A stretch of DNA of 64,000 nucleotides from Candidatus Woesearchaeota archaeon (lineage in GTDB: Archaea > Nanobdellota > Nanobdellia > Woesearchaeales > GCA-2687795): assembly GCA_002687795.1 (NCBI GenBank), contig NZBG01000003.1, positions 24,557 to 88,556 on the forward strand, written 5' to 3'. The notes under the pieces are model-generated. The model had not been told where the DNA came from, searched no databases, and saw only the letters and a program-made list of their open reading frames with translations. A program made the position numbers and the translations under genes. Every line of letters starts with the position of its first letter. Position 1 is the first letter of the stretch. Of the stretch, positions 17,482-28,188 are shown in pieces.

Positions 17482-19251
17482 ATGTGCGGAATAACCGGCT
17501 ACAAAGGAAAAAGGAATGCCTCAGAGATTGTGATCAAAGGCTTAAAGAAGCTTGAATACAGAGGCTATGACAGCTGGGGTATTGCTATCAAAACAGACAA
17601 TCACCTTAATGTCATCAAAAGGATTGGAAAGATTGGCGATGTTTCTTCTAAAGAATTAAAGCTAAAGAAATCAAGCTTTGGAATAGCGCACACAAGATGG
17701 GCAACCACCGGCAAAGTAACCCAGGAAAATGCTCATCCTCACCTTTCAATGGACAACAAAATAGCTGTTGTCCACAACGGCATCATAGAGAATTATCAGG
17801 AGCTAAAGAAATTCTTAACAAAGCAAGGCTTTAAATTCAGATCAGAAACTGACACAGAAGTAATCCCTCAGTTTATCCAATACTTCATGGACAAAGGCAA
17901 CAGCTTTAATGACGCTGTTATCAACACAATAAAAAAGCTGGAAGGAAGGTTTGCAATTGTTGCGATCAACAAAGATTATGACACAATGATAGGAGCAAGA
18001 AGAGGCTCTCCTTTAGTTCTTGGAGTTGGAAAAGATGAATTCTTCCTTGCATCTGATATCCCTGCTTTCCTTGAATACACAAAAGATGTAATATTCCTTG
18101 ACGATAATGAGATTGTATTCATCAACAGTAAGACTGAAATCAGAAACTTCCAGACAAACAAAAAGGTTGAAAAGAAAACTGAAAAGATTGACTGGGATGC
18201 TAAGGAAGCAGAAAAAGGCTCTTTTCCCCACTTTATGCTCAAAGAAATCCTTGAGCAAAAGGAAAGCATTGCAAGAGCAGTTAACCAGGACTTAGACGAA
18301 ATAAAAAGAATAGCAAAACTGATAAATGATGCCTTTGGAGTCTTTATTGTAGGCTGCGGCACCGCTGGCAAGGTATGCCACACTGCAACTTATTTATTCT
18401 CAAGGATAGCAGACAAGCATGTAAACTTCTCCTTTTCATCAGAGTTTCCAAACTACCAACACTTCTTAACAGACAAAACCCTGATGATAGCAGTATCCCA
18501 GAGCGGGGAAACCGCAGATACACTAGAAGCAATCGAAGCAGCAAAGAAAAAAGGTGTCAAAGTTCTCTCAATAGTAAACGTCTATGGCAGCTCAATGACA
18601 AGAATATCTGACTACAATATCTATGTCAAATCAGGCCCTGAGAAATGCGTTGCATCAACAAAGGTAACAACAGGCCAATTAGCAATATTAACAATGTTAG
18701 CTTATGCATGCGCAGGAAAACTGGAAGAAGGCACTAAACTCATAAAACAGACAATAACAGACATCAACAAAACAATAAACGACTCTTACCTTAAAAAGAT
18801 AAAATCATTAGCAGAAAAAATCAGGGACAATGAGAGCATGTACATAATCGGAAGAGGCCTTAACTACCCCATTGCCCTGGAATCTGCAATAAAACTCCAG
18901 GAAGTAAGCTATATCCATGCAGAAGGCTTTGCTGGCGGAGAGCTTAAGCATGGCCCTCTTGCCTTAATTGACAACAAAACACCCTGCATTGCATTAGTTG
19001 CAAACGATGAAACCAAAGCAGACATCCTTAGCAATGCAGAAGAGGTTAAATCAAGAGCTGGCCTTATCATAGGTGTAGCCCCTGAAAACAATCCTGCCTT
19101 TGATTATTGGCTGGAAGTGCCTGATTCAGGTAACTGCTCGCCTATTGTTAATATTATACCAGTACAGCTGTTAGCTTATTATTTATCTACTCTAAAAGGC
19201 ATTGATCCAGATTACCCAAAAAATTTAGCAAAGTGCGTAAGTGTAAAGTGA
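17482..19251 (+). CDS. glmS: glutamine--fructose-6-phosphate aminotransferase
   Basis: The start is reset to MCGITGY because the N-terminal Cys nucleophile must follow Met; the track start at 17455 is an upstream extension. Two SIS domains, ending in KCVSVK. Confidence 0.9.
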   Translation: MCGITGYKGKRNASEIVIKGLKKLEYRGYDSWGIAIKTDNHLNVIKRIGKIGDVSSKELKLKKSSFGIAHTRWATTGKVTQENAHPHLSMDNKIAVVHNGIIENYQELKKFLTKQGFKFRSETDTEVIPQFIQYFMDKGNSFNDAVINTIKKLEGRFAIVAINKDYDTMIGARRGSPLVLGVGKDEFFLASDIPAFLEYTKDVIFLDDNEIVFINSKTEIRNFQTNKKVEKKTEKIDWDAKEAEKGSFPHFMLKEILEQKESIARAVNQDLDEIKRIAKLINDAFGVFIVGCGTAGKVCHTATYLFSRIADKHVNFSFSSEFPNYQHFLTDKTLMIAVSQSGETADTLEAIEAAKKKGVKVLSIVNVYGSSMTRISDYNIYVKSGPEKCVASTKVTTGQLAILTMLAYACAGKLEEGTKLIKQTITDINKTINDSYLKKIKSLAEKIRDNESMYIIGRGLNYPIALESAIKLQEVSYIHAEGFAGGELKHGPLALIDNKTPCIALVANDETKADILSNAEEVKSRAGLIIGVAPENNPAFDYWLEVPDSGNCSPIVNIIPVQLLAYYLSTLKGIDPDYPKNLAKCVSVK

Positions 19252-19275
19252 TGTTCCTATAACATTAAAGATTTT

Positions 19276-19785
19276 CTATTCTTCTATTATTTCCTTTGTT
19301 TTAGAAATAATCTTCTTAGCTAGTTCAAGCTGTTCTTCATAAAGATTATCTTTAAGTGAAAGGCTTGTCCCATATTGATATTGCTCTCTTACTTCAATAG
19401 TTGTTTGTTCTTTGCTTTCTTCTGCATCCAAAGGTGATATCTTATCTATCATTTCTTTTTCAATATCTATCTTTCCATCCTCAATTAGACTGTTAATTAA
19501 TGCAAATGTACATTCCTGATTTCTTGCTTCATAACCAAACTTTGCTGCAATTGCTAATAAACAATGGTACATAGCATAAAAAACTGTACTTGCACTTATA
19601 TCTGAGAAACTGCCTTCTTTCAGATAGATTGTTGCTTTAAGATAATGGTCTGCTTTGTTTATATATTCTCTAGCTTTTTCTTTGCTAGGATTTACTTTAA
19701 CAAGACCTCTATGAGTATCGGAATCTTTTAGCTCTTTTTCAGCCTTTCTTAAACACCATTCAACCTTGTTCTTTGCATGGCTCAT
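19276..19785 (-). CDS. HEPN-domain protein (putative toxin partner)
   Basis: All-helical 169 aa with a HEPN-like core (VFYAMYHCLLAIAAKFGYEARNQ). Sits immediately downstream of the MNT gene with a 4-nt ATGA overlap. No obvious Rx4-6H motif. Confidence 0.6.
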   Translation of the reverse strand: MSHAKNKVEWCLRKAEKELKDSDTHRGLVKVNPSKEKAREYINKADHYLKATIYLKEGSFSDISASTVFYAMYHCLLAIAAKFGYEARNQECTFALINSLIEDGKIDIEKEMIDKISPLDAEESKEQTTIEVREQYQYGTSLSLKDNLYEEQLELAKKIISKTKEIIEE

Positions 19786-20363
19786 TCTTCAACTAAATCA
19801 ATAAGTTTATCTTCTCCAAAAGCCACAATACCTTTTATCGCACTCAATAAAGCTTTATCTTCTCTTTTTATATTTGCTTTAACATCTTCTTTAGATTGGT
19901 ACATTGGATGTAATTTCTTGATATTTACAAGGTTAATATTTTCCACCTCTTTTTTCACCTTTGGAAACCTTTTCTGGCTAGTTATCAACAAAACATCTAT
20001 ATCATTAACTTCTTTTTTTCTTAGTATAGAACCAAACAATACCGCCACATTTGCATTCTTAATCTTCTTGAGTTCATTAATCCATACCTTTACATAACTA
20101 GGTGCTTGTTCAGCCTCTCTTTTTAGCAGAAATCTAATATAATCTTTTACATAATCATTCCTCATATTTAGCTTGTATATCCTTGCTTTTCCAATCTCTT
20201 TGGATTTCAGTATATTTTCTTTCTCCAGCCTCCTAGCTATCTTAAGAGCACCCATTGGGCTGATCCCCAAATGCTTTCCCATGCTTCTAGCATTATATTG
20301 TTTCTCCGGACTCTTGAAAATGCTCAACACAAAGAGCATCTCATTATTGGTTATATCCTTCAT
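19782..20363 (-). CDS. wHTH - minimal nucleotidyltransferase (MNT, putative antitoxin)
   Basis: N-terminal winged helix (GISPMGALKIARRLEKENIL) and an NTase core LFGSILRKKEVNDIDVLL. Confidence 0.7.
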   Translation of the reverse strand: MKDITNNEMLFVLSIFKSPEKQYNARSMGKHLGISPMGALKIARRLEKENILKSKEIGKARIYKLNMRNDYVKDYIRFLLKREAEQAPSYVKVWINELKKIKNANVAVLFGSILRKKEVNDIDVLLITSQKRFPKVKKEVENINLVNIKKLHPMYQSKEDVKANIKREDKALLSAIKGIVAFGEDKLIDLVEE

Positions 20364-20428
20364 TTAAACTCACAGTTTACATATATAAACTCTAAGTTTA
20401 TATGCCTTTCGGTTTTAAGAAGTCAGAA

Positions 20429-20500
20429 CGCCCCTACCGGGATTTGAACCCGGGCCACAACCTCCGCAAGGTTGCATCCTATCCGCTAGACTATAGGGGC
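20429..20500 (-). tRNA. tRNA-Arg (GCG), intronless
   Basis: The reverse complement GCCCCTATAGTCTAGCGGATAGGATGCAACCTTGCGGAGGTTGTGGCCCGGGTTCAAATCCCGGTAGGGGCG folds as a cloverleaf. Anticodon loop is TTGCGGA. CCA is not encoded. Confidence 0.9.
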
Positions 20501-20601
20501 ATGTTGAAGGATAATCCTTATAGATTTATAAGTTATCTTTACCACCCACTGATGATAAATATAGAAAGATTTATAACGGATGAAATAGTACCATTTTCTT
20601 T

Positions 20602-21672
20602 ATGGCAAGCAATATACAGGACTTGGAAGAAAGGGCTAGGAACCTATATGCAAAAGGATTAGATCCAACTACATTATCCAAATTGCAGGAAATTGATGAT
20701 CCTTTAGATAGGCTATATTGTACGCTTTCAGTATTACTCCAATCTCCTGAATCTCAAATAGCTGATGACATAAAAGGACCTTTACAACAAACTGTTTCTG
20801 ATTCATATGAAAAAGCCATTAAGGAAAAAGAGAGTCTAGAGAAAAAAACAATAACCGATAAGTTAACTGGATTATTTAATAGATTACATCTGGAAAATAC
20901 AGTTTGCAATGAATTGTCCAGTGCATATAGGGATGGCAAGAAAAAATTCTCAGTCTTATTATTTGATATTGACTTTTTTAAGAAATTTAATGATACATAT
21001 GGGCACACAGCAGGCGATACTGTTTTAATATCACTTGGGGAAATTGTTGATGGAATAACTAGACAGCATGATATTCCTTGTCGCTATGGTGGTGAAGAGT
21101 TTGTAGTTGTTTTGCCAGAAACAGATTTAGATGGCGCAATAAAATATGGTTATCATCTAAATAAAGAAATTGGAAATACCAATATTACTTTCACTGATGA
21201 AGATGGTAATGAACAATCAAAATCAATAAATATCAGCACTGGTGTTACTGAGATTGATCAGGATGATCCTGTTTGGCTTCTTTATGGTAAAGCAGGAAGG
21301 GATATGATAAGAAATTATATTGGAAGTGGTTCCGATATTGAAGGAGAAGATGCAGCAGATATAATGGAACAATATCTCAGTATTTTCAAAAGAAAAGAAG
21401 AGGATGGTGATCATCCACGTTCCAGAAGAAAGAAACCTACAAAAAAGCTATTGAAAGAACAGCTACAAGATGTAGGTGATTTTGTTAGAAAATGGTTGGT
21501 AGAAAAGAAAAAGGATAATACCTCTGTTCACGAATCAAATCAGCAAATAGCTTTTGATTATATAATTAAAAGGGCTGATAATCTCCTGTATTTTGTAAAG
21601 AAAAGTGGAAGAAATAATATTGGGTATCGTAAGAAAGAAACTAACGAGAATGTTCTTTATAGAAAGGACTAA
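20602..21672 (+). CDS. GGDEF-domain diguanylate cyclase with a ~100-aa insertion
   Basis: LTGLFNR, FDIDFFKKFNDTYGHTAGD, I-site RQHD then IPCRYGGEEF (nearly identical to PleD RAIDLPCRYGGEEF as I recall it), and a terminal ADNLLYFVKKSGRNNIGY. Confidence 0.85.
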   Translation: MASNIQDLEERARNLYAKGLDPTTLSKLQEIDDPLDRLYCTLSVLLQSPESQIADDIKGPLQQTVSDSYEKAIKEKESLEKKTITDKLTGLFNRLHLENTVCNELSSAYRDGKKKFSVLLFDIDFFKKFNDTYGHTAGDTVLISLGEIVDGITRQHDIPCRYGGEEFVVVLPETDLDGAIKYGYHLNKEIGNTNITFTDEDGNEQSKSINISTGVTEIDQDDPVWLLYGKAGRDMIRNYIGSGSDIEGEDAADIMEQYLSIFKRKEEDGDHPRSRRKKPTKKLLKEQLQDVGDFVRKWLVEKKKDNTSVHESNQQIAFDYIIKRADNLLYFVKKSGRNNIGYRKKETNENVLYRKD

Positions 21673-21876
21673 GCATATAAGGCAATGATTCTTTTATGTT
21701 CAAGTAAGGGATATTATTCACAAACCTACCTCTTAACATCCAGTCCAACCTTTTTCTAACTTTACTTTTTTATTACAGAAAGATATTCTCAGAACAGTCG
21801 TTTAATTCTATAAAATAACCTTTAAACAACAACAAACTATAAAAACAAACATATCCTGTTTCTTAAATGGTTTTAA

Positions 21877-23106
21877 ATGTCTGACATAGCTATACTTCCA
21901 ATCAGGGCTAATGATGGCTTTGCCTTAAAGCTTGAAAGAAACTTCAGGGGCCTTAAAGCCCAGAACATAAAAAGGATTGAAGTAATCAACAGAAGGTTCA
22001 GCGATGGTGAATACAATCCTGTAATAATAGAAGAAAACGTTGAAGAAGGAAAGCCTGAAAAGAAATGCAAACACAAGAAGGTTTACCTTGTATGGACAAT
22101 CACCAACCAGATAACCCCAACTGAAAACTTTGCGAGAGTCCTTCTTTTAGCGGATGCAGCATACAGGGAAGGAGCAGAGGAAGTCAATCTTATAATTGCC
22201 TATCACTACTTCAACCGCCAGGACATTGACCCCACCCTGATCTACTCCCTTCAATCAGAAAAAGATGATGAAAAGAAGGAAAAGCAGATAGACAAACTCA
22301 TGAAGATGATTGGCCAGCCATTCAGCCTTAAAGTTCTAATCAACCATTTTTATCATGCAGGAATAAAGAAGGTTATAACCATTGAAGACCACTCTGACAG
22401 GACCCATAATCTATATGAAGAATCTTATAACTCAAAAGATGTTTACTACAACCTTGACCCTACTCCGGTCTATGCTCATTATATCCTGAACATACTGAAA
22501 GAAGACATTGACATTGGAAAGCAAGGGGAGAACCTCATCCTGTTAGGCCCTGACAAAGGCTCCTGGGAAATGCTTGAAAAGATTTACAACCTTCTTGGCC
22601 TAAAGAATGTAAAAAAGGTATTCTTTGACAAAAGCAGAATAAAGGAGAACGATCCTGAGCAGATAAAGTCTGTTATCAAATCAGAGATGAGCGATGTTCC
22701 TGACTTCAAAGACAAGATAATCATAGGCAGGGATGATATTGGCGATACATTAGGCACTTTTACAAAAAGCCTTGAACTTGTTTATGGGCAGAAGCCAAAA
22801 TATATCTTTGGCTTTATCTCCCATCTGATCCTGCCGTATCCCGAGGCTTACTCAAGGATATACAGGAGCAAGCTAAACCTAGTGGGCCTGAACACCCACC
22901 CCAACCTGATATACCAGTCAGAGATCGGCATACCCCAGATAACAATCCTTGACATCACGAAATACTTTGCAGAAGCAATAATCAAATGCGTTGAAAAATC
23001 AAAACCCGTTGAAGAAGTGTTCAGATTCACCAAAGACAACTTAGACGAAGCAGGCCTTCTTTACAAGATACAGAAGAAAGGTGAGCTTGAGAGGTTTTCT
23101 GGATAA
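21877..23106 (+). CDS. divergent ribose-phosphate pyrophosphokinase (PRPP synthetase)-like protein, paralogue 1
   Basis: RRFSDGEY, IIAYHYFNRQD (compare IPYYGYARQDR), EDHS, GPDKG, DKSR and the PRTase loop IIIGRDDIGDTLGT. There is an insertion after the RQD motif. Confidence 0.65.
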   Translation: MSDIAILPIRANDGFALKLERNFRGLKAQNIKRIEVINRRFSDGEYNPVIIEENVEEGKPEKKCKHKKVYLVWTITNQITPTENFARVLLLADAAYREGAEEVNLIIAYHYFNRQDIDPTLIYSLQSEKDDEKKEKQIDKLMKMIGQPFSLKVLINHFYHAGIKKVITIEDHSDRTHNLYEESYNSKDVYYNLDPTPVYAHYILNILKEDIDIGKQGENLILLGPDKGSWEMLEKIYNLLGLKNVKKVFFDKSRIKENDPEQIKSVIKSEMSDVPDFKDKIIIGRDDIGDTLGTFTKSLELVYGQKPKYIFGFISHLILPYPEAYSRIYRSKLNLVGLNTHPNLIYQSEIGIPQITILDITKYFAEAIIKCVEKSKPVEEVFRFTKDNLDEAGLLYKIQKKGELERFSG

Positions 23107-23199
23107 ATATCCTTTGAAATAGTTTTTTGGTTCTATCGGTTAGAATAATTAGGTTGGAGAAGATAAAAGTATAAAAATAAACAGTTTTATGTTTTATGT

Positions 23200-24576
23200 A
23201 TGTCTGATACTTTAGTAGCTCATATCTTAGATAATGACCAACTTGCTATAAAGCTTGGACAAGAGTTCTGGCGCTCTTTTGATATACCTGGTACCAATAG
23301 AGATAGTACTGTTGAGGATTACTTACTGGCTCATCCTTTGCTGATTAATGAACACTTTAAATATGATGAATATAGGCCTATAGTTGACGCTGTGACAAGG
23401 GAAAGCTTGGCTCATCCAGAGCAAGGTAGATGTGAAGGAAAAGTAGTTTACTTAGTATGGGGCATAACAAGCAGAATAAGTCCTCAAGAAGGGGAATCAA
23501 TGATTAGATATGCTGCTGATGCTTTGTACAGAGAAAGGGCCAAAGAGGTTAATTTAATCACTTACCTTTTCAAAGGCAGACAAGACATGGATCCTGCCCT
23601 AAGATTTAATAAAAAAAGATTTAGTGGAAAAAGTCCAGATGAGGTTAAAAAACTAGAGGAAAAGTTAGAGAGTATAAAAGGAGAATCCTTTAGCTTGGAG
23701 GTTATGCTTCAGGGTCTTTTTCAGAGTGGAATCAGAAATATAATAACATTAAACGCACATTCTTATGAGAGCACAAAACGAGTGTTAAGGAGAGTTTTTA
23801 ATTGGTATAAAGTGTTTGGTGAAGAACATGGATTGCCTAATTCTCCAAGTATAGATAAAATATTTTATGATATTGATTCTATGCCAATATTTGCACATTA
23901 TATTAAGTATAATCTGAGTAGGGTTTTGGATTTTGGTGATGAAGGAGAAAATCTTGTTCTTTTATCTCTAGATAAGGGGGATTGGGGAAGAACTGATATG
24001 GTATATGATCTTTTGGGTTTGAAGAATATGTTAGTATTATATCTTGATAAAGATAGAGAAATACCTGATGATCCTAGTAATTTGAGCTGCCTTATTGATC
24101 ATATAAGAACTAAAGATGGTCGTATAGATTGTAAGGATATAGAAGATGTTAGGCAGGTAACTAATATTTCGGGTAAGATCCTTTTGCTGCCAGATGATAT
24201 AATCAACACAGGGGGAACAATTTTCGAGCCGCTTCATCTTTTTAGTGATGGAATGCCTGAATATGTTTTTGCCTTTGCCCCTAATTCAACTCTACCACCA
24301 AGAACAGGTGTATACAAAAAGATTTATGATAACAGAGTAAATATTGTAACATCTGATTCACATCCAAATCTGCAAACTCATAGGGAAAGAGGAGCTACCC
24401 AGATTACAGTATTAAGCTTTGCAAAATATTTTGCAGATATTATAAGAAGTTATGTGAGCAAATCAAGACCATTGCCTTCTTCATTGTTTACGCCTGGAAA
24501 TCTAGAAGAAGTAGGTAATCTTTATGAGATTGTAACAAAAGGGAGAGAATTTGTTCCTTATAGGATTGGAGAGTAG
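23200..24576 (+). CDS. divergent PRPP synthetase-like protein, paralogue 2
   Basis: Collinear with paralogue 1 (VVYLVWGITSRISPQE, ITYLFKGRQDMDP, NAHS, LDKG). Its PRTase loop ILLLPDDIINTGGT is closer to canonical. Confidence 0.65.
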   Translation: MSDTLVAHILDNDQLAIKLGQEFWRSFDIPGTNRDSTVEDYLLAHPLLINEHFKYDEYRPIVDAVTRESLAHPEQGRCEGKVVYLVWGITSRISPQEGESMIRYAADALYRERAKEVNLITYLFKGRQDMDPALRFNKKRFSGKSPDEVKKLEEKLESIKGESFSLEVMLQGLFQSGIRNIITLNAHSYESTKRVLRRVFNWYKVFGEEHGLPNSPSIDKIFYDIDSMPIFAHYIKYNLSRVLDFGDEGENLVLLSLDKGDWGRTDMVYDLLGLKNMLVLYLDKDREIPDDPSNLSCLIDHIRTKDGRIDCKDIEDVRQVTNISGKILLLPDDIINTGGTIFEPLHLFSDGMPEYVFAFAPNSTLPPRTGVYKKIYDNRVNIVTSDSHPNLQTHRERGATQITVLSFAKYFADIIRSYVSKSRPLPSSLFTPGNLEEVGNLYEIVTKGREFVPYRIGE

Positions 24577-24580
24577 TTAT

Positions 24581-26068
24581 TTAACCACCAACCTGCCTCT
24601 TCACATCCTCCCCAACCTTCTTCCCAAGCACAGAAATAAGTTTACTAACGCTCGCCCTCTTAACATCACCTAAATCCTTAATCCCATAAAAATAAAGCTT
24701 TCTCGCCCTTGCCCTTCCGATGCCCTCCAGCCTTACCAAAGGCAACAGCTGCTCCTTAACACCATACTTGAGCCTTAACCTTAACTTAATCAATTCCTTC
24801 ACCGGAGGCCTTGGCTTCATCAGCTTAGCAATCTCCTCAGCTGCATACAAAAGCCAGTCAGCTCTCTCAAGCTTAACTCTTATCTCACCAGGCCTTATCC
24901 CAAACTCCTCCAGCAAAGTTTCCTCATCCTTCTCATTAACCCATTCCTCAAACACCATTGCAGTCTTAACCGCTCTCTGGAAACCATCATAAAAAGGCTC
25001 ATAACAATTAGGCACACTCATCAGCAACTCATCTGAATGCTTTAACAGAACCTTGTCTATCATCTCCTCATCCTTTACCCTAACGCTCAGCAAAGGCCTC
25101 ATCTCCAAGGTGTTAGACAACACCAAAAGCAATGAAAGCGACCTTGTTTCTTCCTTTGCCCTCTTAAGGCATCCAATAACAAAATCAGCAGTATAAGGGT
25201 CAATATAAAGCTCAGCAACCCTCTTCCCAATAATAGAAGCTTTATACTTATTATTCTCCAGATCAAGGGCAGACTGGAAATCCTCTGAGCCTGCGCTGCT
25301 CTCAATAAACCCCCAATCTAAAAGTAAGCCAATCATCTTATGGATTATCACTCTTAGCTTCTCCATATCCCTGAACTGGAACGCCCAGAACGTCTTCTTA
25401 AAAAATCCGATTATCTCTTTCTCGTCCCTGACATAACCTGTAGCTATCAAAGAAAGCAGATAAGTTCTCAAAGCAGGCTCAACCGCCAGCTTAGAATAGA
25501 TATCCTCAGGCTCCCCTGAAATATACAATTCATGGATCTTCTTCTTATGAGATTCATTATTAGCAACAACAATAGCCTCTCCATGCTCATCATAGCCAGG
25601 CCTTCCGGCTCTCCCAGCCATTTGGTAATACTCCAGCACAGGTATCCAGTCCAAACCTCTTCCACCATACCTTCTAAGCTCTTTAATGATTGCCCTGAAA
25701 GCAGGAATATTGATGCCCATGGCAAGCGTTGGCGTGGCGCAAATAACCTTAACAAGCTTATTCCTGAAAGCATTTTCAATCAATTCCTTCTGCTTCCCGA
25801 CAAGCCCAGCATGATGATATGCAATCCCTTTCTTAACGCACTTAGCAAGCCTCTCGCACTGCATAGTAGGCCTTGACAAAGCCTTTAACACCTGCCTTGA
25901 CAAATCCCCCAGCTCTTTACTTGATTCCTTAATCACCTTTGAAATATCCTCAGCAGCCTTCTCTGCCGAACGTTTAGTATTAGCAAACACAAGGCACTGT
26001 TTCTCATGCCTTAAAGTATCCAGAACAAGGTCTATGGCGCCGTCATTTGTTGGTGTAAGGATTTTCAT
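24581..26068 (-). CDS. Hel308/Ski2-like helicase lacking the first RecA domain (RecA2 + winged helix + ratchet + HhH only)
   Basis: Begins MKILTPTNDGAIDLVLDTLRHEKQCLVFANTKRSAEK and carries motifs IV-VI (ATPTLAMGINIPA, QMAGRAGRPG). Walker A and DExH are absent. The track ORF's first 29 codons (to 26155) read through the tRNA-Ile gene and were trimmed. Confidence 0.8.
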   Translation of the reverse strand: MKILTPTNDGAIDLVLDTLRHEKQCLVFANTKRSAEKAAEDISKVIKESSKELGDLSRQVLKALSRPTMQCERLAKCVKKGIAYHHAGLVGKQKELIENAFRNKLVKVICATPTLAMGINIPAFRAIIKELRRYGGRGLDWIPVLEYYQMAGRAGRPGYDEHGEAIVVANNESHKKKIHELYISGEPEDIYSKLAVEPALRTYLLSLIATGYVRDEKEIIGFFKKTFWAFQFRDMEKLRVIIHKMIGLLLDWGFIESSAGSEDFQSALDLENNKYKASIIGKRVAELYIDPYTADFVIGCLKRAKEETRSLSLLLVLSNTLEMRPLLSVRVKDEEMIDKVLLKHSDELLMSVPNCYEPFYDGFQRAVKTAMVFEEWVNEKDEETLLEEFGIRPGEIRVKLERADWLLYAAEEIAKLMKPRPPVKELIKLRLRLKYGVKEQLLPLVRLEGIGRARARKLYFYGIKDLGDVKRASVSKLISVLGKKVGEDVKRQVGG

Positions 26069-26086
26069 GTTAGAGAAGATAAAAAA

Positions 26087-26199
26087 TGGGCCCGCGGAGA
26101 CTTTCAAACCATCAATGGCTTTTGAACTCCGGACCTCACGATCTCTGCGATGCATGACATATATCAGTCGTGCGCACCACCAGACTATGCTACGGGCCC
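26087..26199 (-). tRNA. tRNA-Ile (GAT) with two introns (anticodon loop 19 nt; T-loop 20 nt)
   Basis: Reverse complement: GGGCCCG TA GCAT AGTCTGGTG GTGC G CACGA CTGATA[TATGTCATGCATCGCAGAG]A TCGTG AGGTC CGGAG TTCAAA[AGCCATTGATGGTTTGAAAG]T CTCCG CGGGCCC A. Removing the bracketed segments gives a 74-nt cloverleaf. Confidence 0.85.
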
Positions 26200-26296
26200 A
26201 TAAAAAATAGATTTATATAGCGATTTATATATTTTTTCGTAACATTTATAAATATTCTATCTGTATATAAAACTTAGCTAAAAAAAGAGGTGCCAA

Positions 26297-26830
26297 ATGG
26301 TCAGAGATTATGAGCTTCTGCCTGGAAAAGACATAGCAAGAATAAAGAAGGAATTAGGAGAACTAAAAGGTTCCGGGCTTTCTGCAGAAAAGATTGAAAC
26401 ATTAAACAGAAATCTAGGCGAATTGATAGATATTATAAAGGTTGCCAGCGACCAGATGAAGCTTGAAGAAACTGACCCTTACTCACACAAGCTTGACCAG
26501 GTCATTGAAAAGCTTGACAAGCTGATTTATGAGAATAAAGAGATAGCCGAAGGCATAATTGCAGTTGCAGACCTAGTAAAAAAACCCAAAGAAACCCCTC
26601 ACCATAAACCGCCTATGGGAACGCAGCCTCATCCAATGCCTCCTCCATTAAACCAGCCACCATCTCCTCAAAATCAGCCGCCTGGCCCAATGCCTCCGTT
26701 ACCAGCCCCATTACCTCCAATAACCCCACCGCCAGGTCCTCAGCAAACAGGTCCTGTTCCAATACCACCTTTACAACCTATTGGAAAACCGGAAAAGAAA
26801 CCAAAAAAACTCTTTGGCTTATTCAAATAA
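26297..26830 (+). CDS. hypothetical protein, coiled-coil N-half and proline-rich tail
   Basis: SD-like AGAGGTG lies upstream. The C-terminal 80 aa are about half Pro (PPMGTQPHPMPPPLNQPPSPQNQPPGPMPPLPAPLPPITPPPGP). Confidence 0.5.
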   Translation: MVRDYELLPGKDIARIKKELGELKGSGLSAEKIETLNRNLGELIDIIKVASDQMKLEETDPYSHKLDQVIEKLDKLIYENKEIAEGIIAVADLVKKPKETPHHKPPMGTQPHPMPPPLNQPPSPQNQPPGPMPPLPAPLPPITPPPGPQQTGPVPIPPLQPIGKPEKKPKKLFGLFK

Positions 26831-26833
26831 ACA

Positions 26834-27049
26834 ATGAACAGATTAATTCTTTCGGACAATGAGATTAACCCCATCAAATTAAGATTCTTTTTATCACATC
26901 TCAGAGCCCCAACCGAACCAGAAGCGCCAGTGCCAGCAAAAAAGCTAAGCAAAGTAGATATTAAGAAGCTACGCAAAAGAGTTTCATCCTTAAAGAGGCA
27001 GATTAGCAAGATTAAGAAGAAAAAGAATACAAAAAGAAAGAAAAAATAA
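26834..27049 (+). CDS. hypothetical small basic protein
   Basis: 71 aa with a Lys/Arg-rich tail, starting 3 nt after the previous stop. No recognisable family. Confidence 0.3.
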   Translation: MNRLILSDNEINPIKLRFFLSHLRAPTEPEAPVPAKKLSKVDIKKLRKRVSSLKRQISKIKKKKNTKRKKK

Positions 27050-27090
27050 AAACAGCAACTTTTATAAATCACAATACAACAATATTTCTA

Positions 27091-27435
27091 ATGAAAACAA
27101 AACCACTTCTTCCAAGCTTAAGAGAAAAAAAGAGATACCTGGTGTTCCAGATATTATCAAGATCCCCTCTTAAATCTTCTGAAAGCGTTATCAAAAGCAT
27201 TTACTCGGGATGCCTAAAATTCTTTGGAGAATTAGGGTTTGCAAAAGCAGCCCCAATGTTCCTGAAAGACAAATACAATCCCAAATCACAGAAAGGTATC
27301 ATAAAAATAAACAATAAATATATAAACCACTTAAAGGCTATACTAACACTTGTAAACAAAGTAGACAAGCAGGATGTTATAATAAGCTCATTAGGGGTTT
27401 CAGGTATACTAAAAAAAGCTGAAAAAATAATCTAA
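27091..27435 (+). CDS. RNase P protein component Pop5 (Rnp2)
   Basis: LLPSLREKKRYLVFQI...GELGFAKAAP...GIIKINNKY...LGVSGILKKA is collinear with Pyrococcus Pop5 as I recall it. Confidence 0.85.
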   Translation: MKTKPLLPSLREKKRYLVFQILSRSPLKSSESVIKSIYSGCLKFFGELGFAKAAPMFLKDKYNPKSQKGIIKINNKYINHLKAILTLVNKVDKQDVIISSLGVSGILKKAEKII

Positions 27436-27450
27436 AAAGGTGATTCAAAA

Positions 27451-28188
27451 ATGCAACCAATGCCGCATCAATTAATGGGTTATGACAGGGCCATAACAAT
27501 GTTCAGCCCTGACGGAAGACTGTTACAGGTAGAATATGCTAAAAAGACTGTTAAACAGGGTTCAACCGCAATAGGAATCGTTTGTTCTGATGGTGTCTTA
27601 TTAGTAACTGACAAAAGGATTGTTGACAGCCTGATCATACCGGAATCAGTTGAAAAAACATTCCAGATAGATGAGCATATAGGCGCAAGCGCTTCAGGAA
27701 TCTTATCCGATGCAAGAGTTTTGATAGAAAACGCGCAAAATAAAGCGCAGCAGCATAGGTTAACATATGATTCTGAGATAGATGTTCTTAGCGTTGTTAA
27801 GGCCATCTGCGACCTAAAGCAAATCTGCACCCAAAGCGCAGGGCTAAGGCCTTTTGGTGTTAGCATTCTAATAGCCGGCGTTGACGCTAATGGCCCAAGG
27901 CTGTTTGAAACCGACCCAACAGGAATCTATTTCCAATACAAAGCAAGCGTTATCGGTGAAGGGGAAACAGAGATCGAGGAAATGCTCCACAAGCAATACA
28001 AGGAAACATTAACAATCGAAGACGCCTTAAAAATAATAATCAGGGCTCTTGCCAAGATTCTTGACAAGAACTTTGATGCTGCCAGGATTGATGCAGCTTA
28101 CATAAGAACAAATGAAAGAAAGTTTAAAAAAATCCCAAAGCTCAGTATAGAAAAGCTTCTTAAAGAAGTTAAAAGGCAAAAAAAGTAG
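27451..28188 (+). CDS. psmA: proteasome subunit alpha
   Basis: YDRAITMFSPDGRLLQVEYA signature. Confidence 0.95.
   Translation: MQPMPHQLMGYDRAITMFSPDGRLLQVEYAKKTVKQGSTAIGIVCSDGVLLVTDKRIVDSLIIPESVEKTFQIDEHIGASASGILSDARVLIENAQNKAQQHRLTYDSEIDVLSVVKAICDLKQICTQSAGLRPFGVSILIAGVDANGPRLFETDPTGIYFQYKASVIGEGETEIEEMLHKQYKETLTIEDALKIIIRALAKILDKNFDAARIDAAYIRTNERKFKKIPKLSIEKLLKEVKRQKK

Follow-up and report, generated by a model that had tools for sequence, protein, structure and literature searches.

In the 64,000-nucleotide stretch of contig NZBG01000003.1 from a Candidatus Woesearchaeota archaeon, an uncultured marine member of the DPANN, that was analysed here (the window), two adjacent genes, A and B, appear to encode a tandemly duplicated, divergent but functional phosphoribosyl pyrophosphate (PRPP) synthetase (Prs), a reading to which we give a probability of about two in three. 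The pair is most likely the ordinary PRPP source of the cell rather than a new signalling system, and it is best seen as a fresh variant within a known kind of enzyme. PRPP is the activated sugar needed for nucleotide building, and PRPP synthetase is a chokepoint enzyme. The contig is C3 of a 925-kb assembly (genome G000, 76% complete). The two genes, each defined by open reading frame, homology and AlphaFold2 model, are:

21877..23106, + strand: gene A, long-form PRPP synthetase (409 aa).
23200..24576, + strand: gene B, diverged tandem duplicate (458 aa).

Both genes are on one strand and are separated by a 93-bp spacer. A tandem pair of 409 and 458 aa had been described from the letters of the window (the sequence-only reading); the open reading frames are found at exactly these coordinates, and their products are paralogues, with 36% BLASTP identity over 450 columns (E = 2e-76). 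The tandem layout is base-for-base identical in independent assemblies, one of them a Tara Oceans scaffold, so an assembly artefact was rejected as the origin of the pair. The identity of these independent contigs leaves zero polymorphisms to count for a population-level selection test.

The sequence-only reading had called A and B highly divergent, insertion-bearing homologues of Prs, and profile scores, predicted fold and insert map bear this out. A passes the cut-offs of Pfam Pribosyltran (32.3 bits; cut-off 26.3) and Pribosyltran_N (31.0 bits; cut-off 25). B gives only a weak Pribosyltran match (18.5 bits) and none to Pribosyltran_N. With TIGR01251, whose curated cut-off is 113 bits, A scores 82.5 bits and B 36 bits. 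The profile searches that had been proposed are thus clear for A in the two Pfam families, but leave B with a sub-threshold match and both proteins under the TIGR01251 cut-off. By profile score, A and B read as divergent members of the PRPP synthetases, and all sequence matches in the PDB are to PRPP synthetases (E = 3e-7 for A and 4e-4 for B). AlphaFold2 models, built from a 19-sequence family alignment, have a predicted local distance difference test score (pLDDT) of 89.5 and a predicted template modelling score (pTM) of 0.90 for A, and of 84.2 and 0.87 for B. The PDB matches listed by Foldseek are PRPP synthetases throughout, including the human PRPS1, E. coli and B. subtilis enzymes, with E-values of 1e-20 (A) and 4e-16 (B) and target-normalised template modelling scores of 0.84-0.86 (A) and 0.77-0.81 (B). 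Both models display the Prs topology of two tandem domains resembling type I phosphoribosyltransferases (PRTases). A and B are predicted with high confidence to adopt the PRPP-synthetase fold.

All Prs-like motifs quoted in the sequence-only reading are present. They are RFSDGE, NRQD, EDHS, PDKG, DKSR and DDIGDTLGT in A, and HFKYDE, GRQD, NAHS, LDKG, DKDR and DDIINTGGT in B. The RQD motif corresponds to R114-Q115-D116 in A and R127-Q128-D129 in B, and the histidine of the DxH motif to H172 and H187, respectively. In the human pseudoenzyme PRPSAP2, five residues of PRPS1 are replaced: D171 (metal), K194 (ATP), R196 and T225 (ribose-5-phosphate, R5P) and N200 (loop) (PMC12238573). A keeps all five of these (D226, K252, R254, N258 and T291, in the order D171, K194, R196, N200, T225), and B keeps four (D258, K284, R286 and T337). 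The exception, an Asn to Asp change at D290 (the N200 equivalent), is also found in the orthologue P0002, which is the sole copy on its own 175-kb contig. RQD, the DxH histidine and the R5P loop, DDxxDTxGT, are conserved in both proteins, although the loop does differ between the copies as had been noted: it reads DDIGDTLGT in A and DDIINTGGT in B, where the third Asp is replaced by Asn. In 35 other members of the family, 26 sites show conservation of 85% or more; all 26 are kept in A and 21 in B. The changes in B are R to M101, A to L109, G to R113, D to N336 and H to N362. A shares 52-55% identity with its orthologues. It is the conservative copy and probably the housekeeping enzyme.

Comparison with relatives indicates that A and B are a lineage-specific tandem duplication. 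The closest relatives have the order GGDEF gene, single prs-like gene, helicase gene. A second copy occurs in none of the 26 other genomes that carry this long form of Prs, so the co-occurrence check that had been proposed for the pair came out negative, and a search of 5.8 billion proteins for an orthologue of B returned only B itself. Two non-coding regions document the duplication:

21770..21876, + strand: upstream of A, the ancestral prs promoter region in a diverged copy; its TATA-like box, TATAAAAACAAACA, is at 21838.
23107..23199, + strand: A-B spacer, with an oligo-T run after the stop codon of A, then a well-conserved version of the ancestral prs promoter region, TTAGGTTGGAGAAGATAAAAGTATAAAAATAAACA, and a TATA-like box at 23170.

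The spacer is homologous over its whole length to the upstream regions of single-copy orthologues. The alignment with that of contig L007 spans 96 columns at 73% identity, and its local score of 79 was reached by 0 of 2000 shuffled sequences (18.7±3.1). The region upstream of A also matches the L007 upstream region (local score 36 against 17.4±2.7; 0 of 2000). Since both upstream regions derive from the ancestral promoter, the duplicated unit consisted of promoter plus gene. The spacer contains the block TTAGGTTGGAnAAGATAAAAGTATAAAA, whose TATA-like box stands about 25-30 nt ahead of the ATG of B; the block is probably a promoter with B recognition element (BRE) and TATA box plus an operator. 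A and B are presumably transcribed separately. An Rfam E-value scan of positions 20300-26300 for a riboswitch or structured leader returned only a tRNA-Arg above threshold.

The block TTAGGTTGGAnAAGATAAAAGTATAAAA lies at 23135-23183 of the window, at 7935-7980 of L007 and at 8305-8350 of L036. Upstream of the prs-like gene, its conservation across genera is about equal to that of the neighbouring proteins. The better-conserved version of the promoter is held by B, the more diverged protein copy.

Both copies are fast-evolving. The terminal branch of B measures 1.16-1.18 and that of A 0.43-0.44. Relative to the L007 organism, the neighbouring proteins are 80-88% identical, whereas A is just 56% identical to its own orthologue. 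In the tree, B branches outside A and the orthologues, and an A+B clade is marginally rejected by the approximately unbiased (AU) test (p = 0.031). With the same data, a grouping of A with P0002 is rejected more strongly (p = 0.007), though it is the one to which the neighbouring genes point. Rate acceleration has thus distorted the tree, which cannot date the duplication, and dating from its topology was rejected.

A and B are 90-140 residues longer than canonical Prs. We mapped the additional residues against a canonical Prs from the same order, which puts inserts behind the flag region, behind RQD, in the stretch from the catalytic loop to the R5P loop and at the C-terminus:

A, residues 24-32, 51-60, 181-186, 206-214 and 266-273: inserts relative to canonical Prs (insert map).
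22237..22308, + strand: codons of the helical insert of A after RQD, residues 121-144 (insert map, AlphaFold2).
23029..23100, + strand: codons of the C-terminal extension of A, residues 385-408 (insert map, AlphaFold2).
23788..23853, + strand: B-specific 22-aa insert, residues 197-218, lengthening the helix after the DxH motif (AlphaFold2).
24091..24156, + strand: B-specific 22-aa insert, residues 298-319, a β-hairpin directly after the catalytic flexible loop.

The insert after RQD comprises predicted helices 121-127 and 131-144 in A, with a pLDDT of about 71-80. At 24-26 aa, it stands in place of the regulatory flexible loop and is common to the whole family. The C-terminal extension (24-27 aa; in A a helix, 386-395, and a strand, 397-400, with pLDDT above 90) is family-wide as well, as are the smaller inserts. 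B carries the full insert set of A plus the two inserts of 22 residues each, the second of which is modelled with strands 295-304 and 307-310. The sequence-only reading had located the extra length after the RQD motif and before the PRTase loop; both sites are correct, and further ones complete the list. The insertions are largely a family trait, to judge from the alignments, and do not separate A from B. Their presence in single-copy family members means that they do not mark a non-catalytic partner.

A different role for B has to be weighed here. B could be a regulatory, largely non-catalytic hetero-oligomer partner of A, an archaeal analogue of the eukaryotic PRPSAP, Prs1 and Prs5. We consider this unlikely, with a number of features speaking for it. 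B is the faster-evolving copy by terminal branch length, and the conserved sites altered in it (5 of 26) include the R5P-loop Asp and a conserved His. Its flag region is changed from RFSDGE to HFKYDE, and its second 22-residue insert, right after the catalytic flexible loop, occupies the site of the PRPSAP inserts. Finally, B has been retained beside a conservative catalytic copy, behind the better-conserved ancestral promoter. However, B is intact at the equivalents of D171, K194, R196 and T225, all substituted in PRPSAP2. The Asp at the N200 equivalent is shared with P0002, a sole-copy orthologue, and the flag-region Asp varies over the entire family. The sequence-only reading had likened the pair to the eukaryotic arrangement of insertion-bearing non-catalytic paralogues with catalytic ones; that likeness is not upheld, as the inserts are family-wide in the 26 other, single-copy genomes and the diagnostic residues of PRPSAP are kept at five of five sites in A and four of five in B.

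The genes of this window belong to a long-form subfamily with a length of about 400-465 aa and scores under the curated Prs cut-offs. An exhaustive HMMER search recovered about 40 cluster representatives, most of them of 390-470 aa. A family profile separates the subfamily by a clean gap, long-form members scoring at least 371 bits and canonical Prs at most 117 bits. A word-indexed profile search yielded no long-form members beyond the sequences of its query alignment A1, and a scan of genome contigs with peptide patterns from A recovered no relative. Trees unite the long-form sequences with 100% support, and a long stem of 1.13-1.53 substitutions per site leads to them. Their sister group is made up of class I-like Prs from the same order; the class III-like genes of about 290 aa stand apart, and their sequences in relatives form a clade of their own (99% support) with which the long form does not cluster. 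Conserved motifs specific to the family (GEYxP, KxRxxPNDP, NxHPN) differ from those of canonical Prs. Across samples of 251 genomes of the order and 301 genomes of the phylum, the long form was found in 27 genomes of this archaeal class, with a copy number of one in all but the present genome. In 18 of the 27 carriers, including G000, its congener G001 and the single-contig genome G097, there is no Prs homologue besides it.

A number of observations concern the wider Prs repertoire. Two very long proteins, P0027 (1473 aa) and P0031 (1086 aa), match the PRTase-loop region of B in as many as 10 separate places, a pattern suggestive of repeated PRTase-like modules. In G019, a 96%-complete relative, the long-form prs (G019:C5:30622-31794; L037 6596-7810) has one in-frame TGA after codon 350, which could be a sequencing error, a pseudogene mutation or a recoding site; in the congeneric G146 the frame is intact (413 aa). 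A Prs of about 320 aa in G035, G038, G025, G010, G024, G004, G016 and G039 scores 390-425 bits with TIGR01251, and the class III-like Prs of about 290 aa scores 218-259 bits. Both types are present in G010, G016, G024, G038 and G004.

The sequence-only reading had asked for a normal-length prs elsewhere in the genome, and none is detectable: a whole-assembly TIGR01251 search matched only A, B and short PRTases, and a canonical prs elsewhere in G000 was rejected on this basis. No protein of G000 or of G001 (94% complete) reaches the TIGR01251 cut-off, whereas 14 of 14 control genomes have one above it. G001 has one long-form copy. G000 encodes pyrE beside pyrC, apt, a PRK08558-type adenine PRTase and a fourth purine-PRTase-like protein, so that the genome needs PRPP. 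The genomic position of the gene points the same way. In long-form carriers of three families (f1 and those of G019 and G013), prs is convergent to the same helicase gene, and in G022 and G034 this spot, convergent to the same gene, is taken by canonical-scoring prs genes. This shared synteny across several families argues that the long form sits at an old prs locus; the idea that the prs genes are part of a tRNA-bounded accessory island was rejected for this reason.

The subfamily might instead have another specificity, using a diphosphoryl donor such as GTP or another acceptor; beside a canonical Prs, it would then do a job different from bulk PRPP synthesis. Its fully supported clade with a long stem from both class I-like and class III-like Prs, its unusual motifs, its replaced regulatory loop and its co-occurrence with canonical Prs in a third of the carriers (9 of 27) all fit such a change. 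Conservation nevertheless extends to the R5P loop, to the catalytic residues Lys and Arg, to the metal-binding Asp and to the His, and the long form is the sole candidate PRPP source in 18 genomes, with PRTases encoded wherever this was checked. A switch of substrate thus seems improbable to us.

Several points weigh against taking the pair for a functional PRPP synthetase. A and B both score under the TIGR01251 cut-off, and B under the Pfam cut-offs too. Five otherwise conserved positions are altered in B, including the third Asp of the R5P loop, and the flag-region aspartate is not conserved in the long-form family. The G000 assembly is merely 76% complete. In 9 of the 27 genomes the long form and a canonical Prs occur together, and these nine include all three genomes of f138, a family of a different order that is the closest outgroup of the A clade. 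Given this coexistence, the long form does not simply stand in for canonical Prs and might serve a specialised purpose, although on the genomic evidence it appears sufficient by itself in many lineages.

These comparisons show the homology, the fold, the conserved residues, the distribution, the duplicated promoter, the lack of a further prs and the presence of PRPP consumers; from them we infer that the enzymes are active and what the inserts and B do. A and B would be the lineage's own ribose-phosphate diphosphokinase, converting ATP and ribose-5-phosphate to PRPP and AMP, and the long form would supply PRPP to the orotate and adenine phosphoribosyltransferases. The helical insert that replaces the regulatory loop and the C-terminal extension probably alter allosteric control or oligomerisation, not chemistry. 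B would have kept the catalytic core while drifting at five sites and gaining two inserts; its likeliest role is that of a specialised isozyme or of a hetero-oligomer partner still able to bind substrate.

B might also be a redundant duplicate under relaxed selection and on its way to becoming a pseudogene, as its long branch, its lack of an orthologue, the five conserved-site changes and its lower profile scores would allow. Its 458-codon frame is however unbroken, its fold is predicted with confidence, and its catalytic residues are kept (four of five, the N200 equivalent being D) at an overall identity of about 36-40%. In addition, the better-conserved ancestral promoter block precedes it, and its sequence is identical in several independent assemblies. 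We regard decay of B as very unlikely.

The genes on either side of the pair are:

20602..21672, + strand: GGDEF diguanylate-cyclase-like gene, the upstream neighbour (Pfam GGDEF, 127 bits).
24581..26155, - strand: C-terminal half of a Hel308-like helicase, the convergent neighbour (Pfam Helicase_C and Helicase_dom4_arc).

A functional module of GGDEF, A and B for nucleotide signalling, a link that the sequence-only reading had thought conceivable from the GGDEF gene lying directly upstream (an arrangement seen in G000, G001 and the L007-L010 contigs), can be all but discarded: these contigs are syntenic over the whole region, which makes the adjacency little informative, long-form carriers outside f1 lack it, 27 of 41 genomes of the order carry GGDEF genes at other loci, a 205-bp gap and a separate TATA-like box precede A, as such an element also precedes B, and PADLOC matches neither protein. 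The GGDEF-prs adjacency was seen in family f1 only, where all neighbouring genes are syntenic, and it is missing in more distant carriers, where the long-form genes follow a class II aminoacyl-tRNA synthetase or other genes. Membership of A and B in a defence system was likewise rejected, as PADLOC gave no match to them.

GGDEF-domain genes were found in 27 of 41 genomes of the order against 0 of 4 archaeal controls. The GGDEF protein of the window is 26-30% identical to its syntenic counterparts, against 72-88% for the other neighbouring genes. The helicase gene is a synteny anchor outside the enzyme system; the convergent prs-helicase layout recurs in G001, L007, G019 and G013, and with canonical-scoring prs in G022 and G034. 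It encodes only the RecA2, winged-helix, ratchet and helix-hairpin-helix part of a Hel308-like protein. Relatives from several families of the order retain this same form, with 495-524 aa and identities of 49-84%. This conservation indicates that the truncated or split form is old and no local accident. Further upstream, a gene pair encoding a winged helix-turn-helix nucleotidyltransferase and a HEPN protein (Pfam Polbeta/NTP_transf_2 and HEPN; 19276-20363, - strand) lies beside a tRNA-Arg(GCG) gene (20428-20501, - strand), the only tRNA found by ARAGORN over 18500-27500.

As the long form scores under curated cut-offs, metabolic reconstructions of DPANN archaea may call PRPP synthetase absent. 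Recognising the subfamily would give a PRPP source back to at least 18 genomes seemingly without one. The exchange of the regulatory loop hints that the enzyme is controlled in another way, and the only duplicated case is a small natural experiment on how paralogues specialise. No major concept is changed unless B proves to be a regulatory subunit. If B were a catalytically impaired or regulatory subunit that assembles with A, the pair would be an archaeal counterpart of the eukaryotic PRPS/PRPSAP hetero-complex, one that arose by tandem duplication of an already atypical long-form PRPS.

Among known systems, the class I Prs enzymes (B. subtilis 1dkr, E. coli 6asv, human PRPS1 8dbe) share with the long form the two-domain type I PRTase fold, the flag region, RQD and DxH motifs, the metal-binding Asp, the K-x-R-x3-N loop and the DDxxDTxGT loop. 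Identity is just 18-22%, and the long form differs by its 90-140 extra residues, by a helical stretch, about 25 residues long, where the canonical enzymes have the regulatory loop, and by the C-terminal extension. The class III PRPP synthetases (M. jannaschii 1u9y and the genes of about 290 aa in G258, G347 and G028) belong to the same reaction family and the same domain of life, and they coexist with the long form in some relatives. They differ in forming a separate clade (99% support), in their length of about 290 aa and in their motifs RQDKRF, DPHLHR and DDIISTGHT.

A 2026 preprint that surveyed more than 35,000 PRPS sequences and defined classes I-XII places the PRPS of DPANN archaea either within bacterial class I or in a heterogeneous zone that none of these classes covers (PMC13252144). 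This placement, as given there, matches the pattern in the present order, including its Prs of about 320 aa. The long-form clade, its insertions and the tandem duplication are not described in sections 6 and 8 of the survey (PMC13252144); as far as those parts of the survey go, the clade adds a coherent group to the region that it left unclassified. The same preprint, in these parts, reports pseudoenzyme formation for eukaryotes only (PMC13252144).

The likeness to eukaryotic PRPSAP and to yeast Prs1/Prs5 lies in a duplicate with inserts within or beside the regulatory and catalytic flexible loops that accompanies a more conservative paralogue (PMC12238573; PMC13252144). The differences are threefold. 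PRPSAP2 has lost D171, K194, R196, N200 and T225 (PMC12238573), whereas B retains four of the five. Unlike the non-homologous regions (NHRs) of PRPSAP, most inserts here are common to A, B and the single-copy orthologues: the regulatory-loop insert is found in all family members, and the insert at 298-319 in B alone. Finally, the NHRs are described as disordered, whereas the inserts of A and B are modelled as helices and strands.

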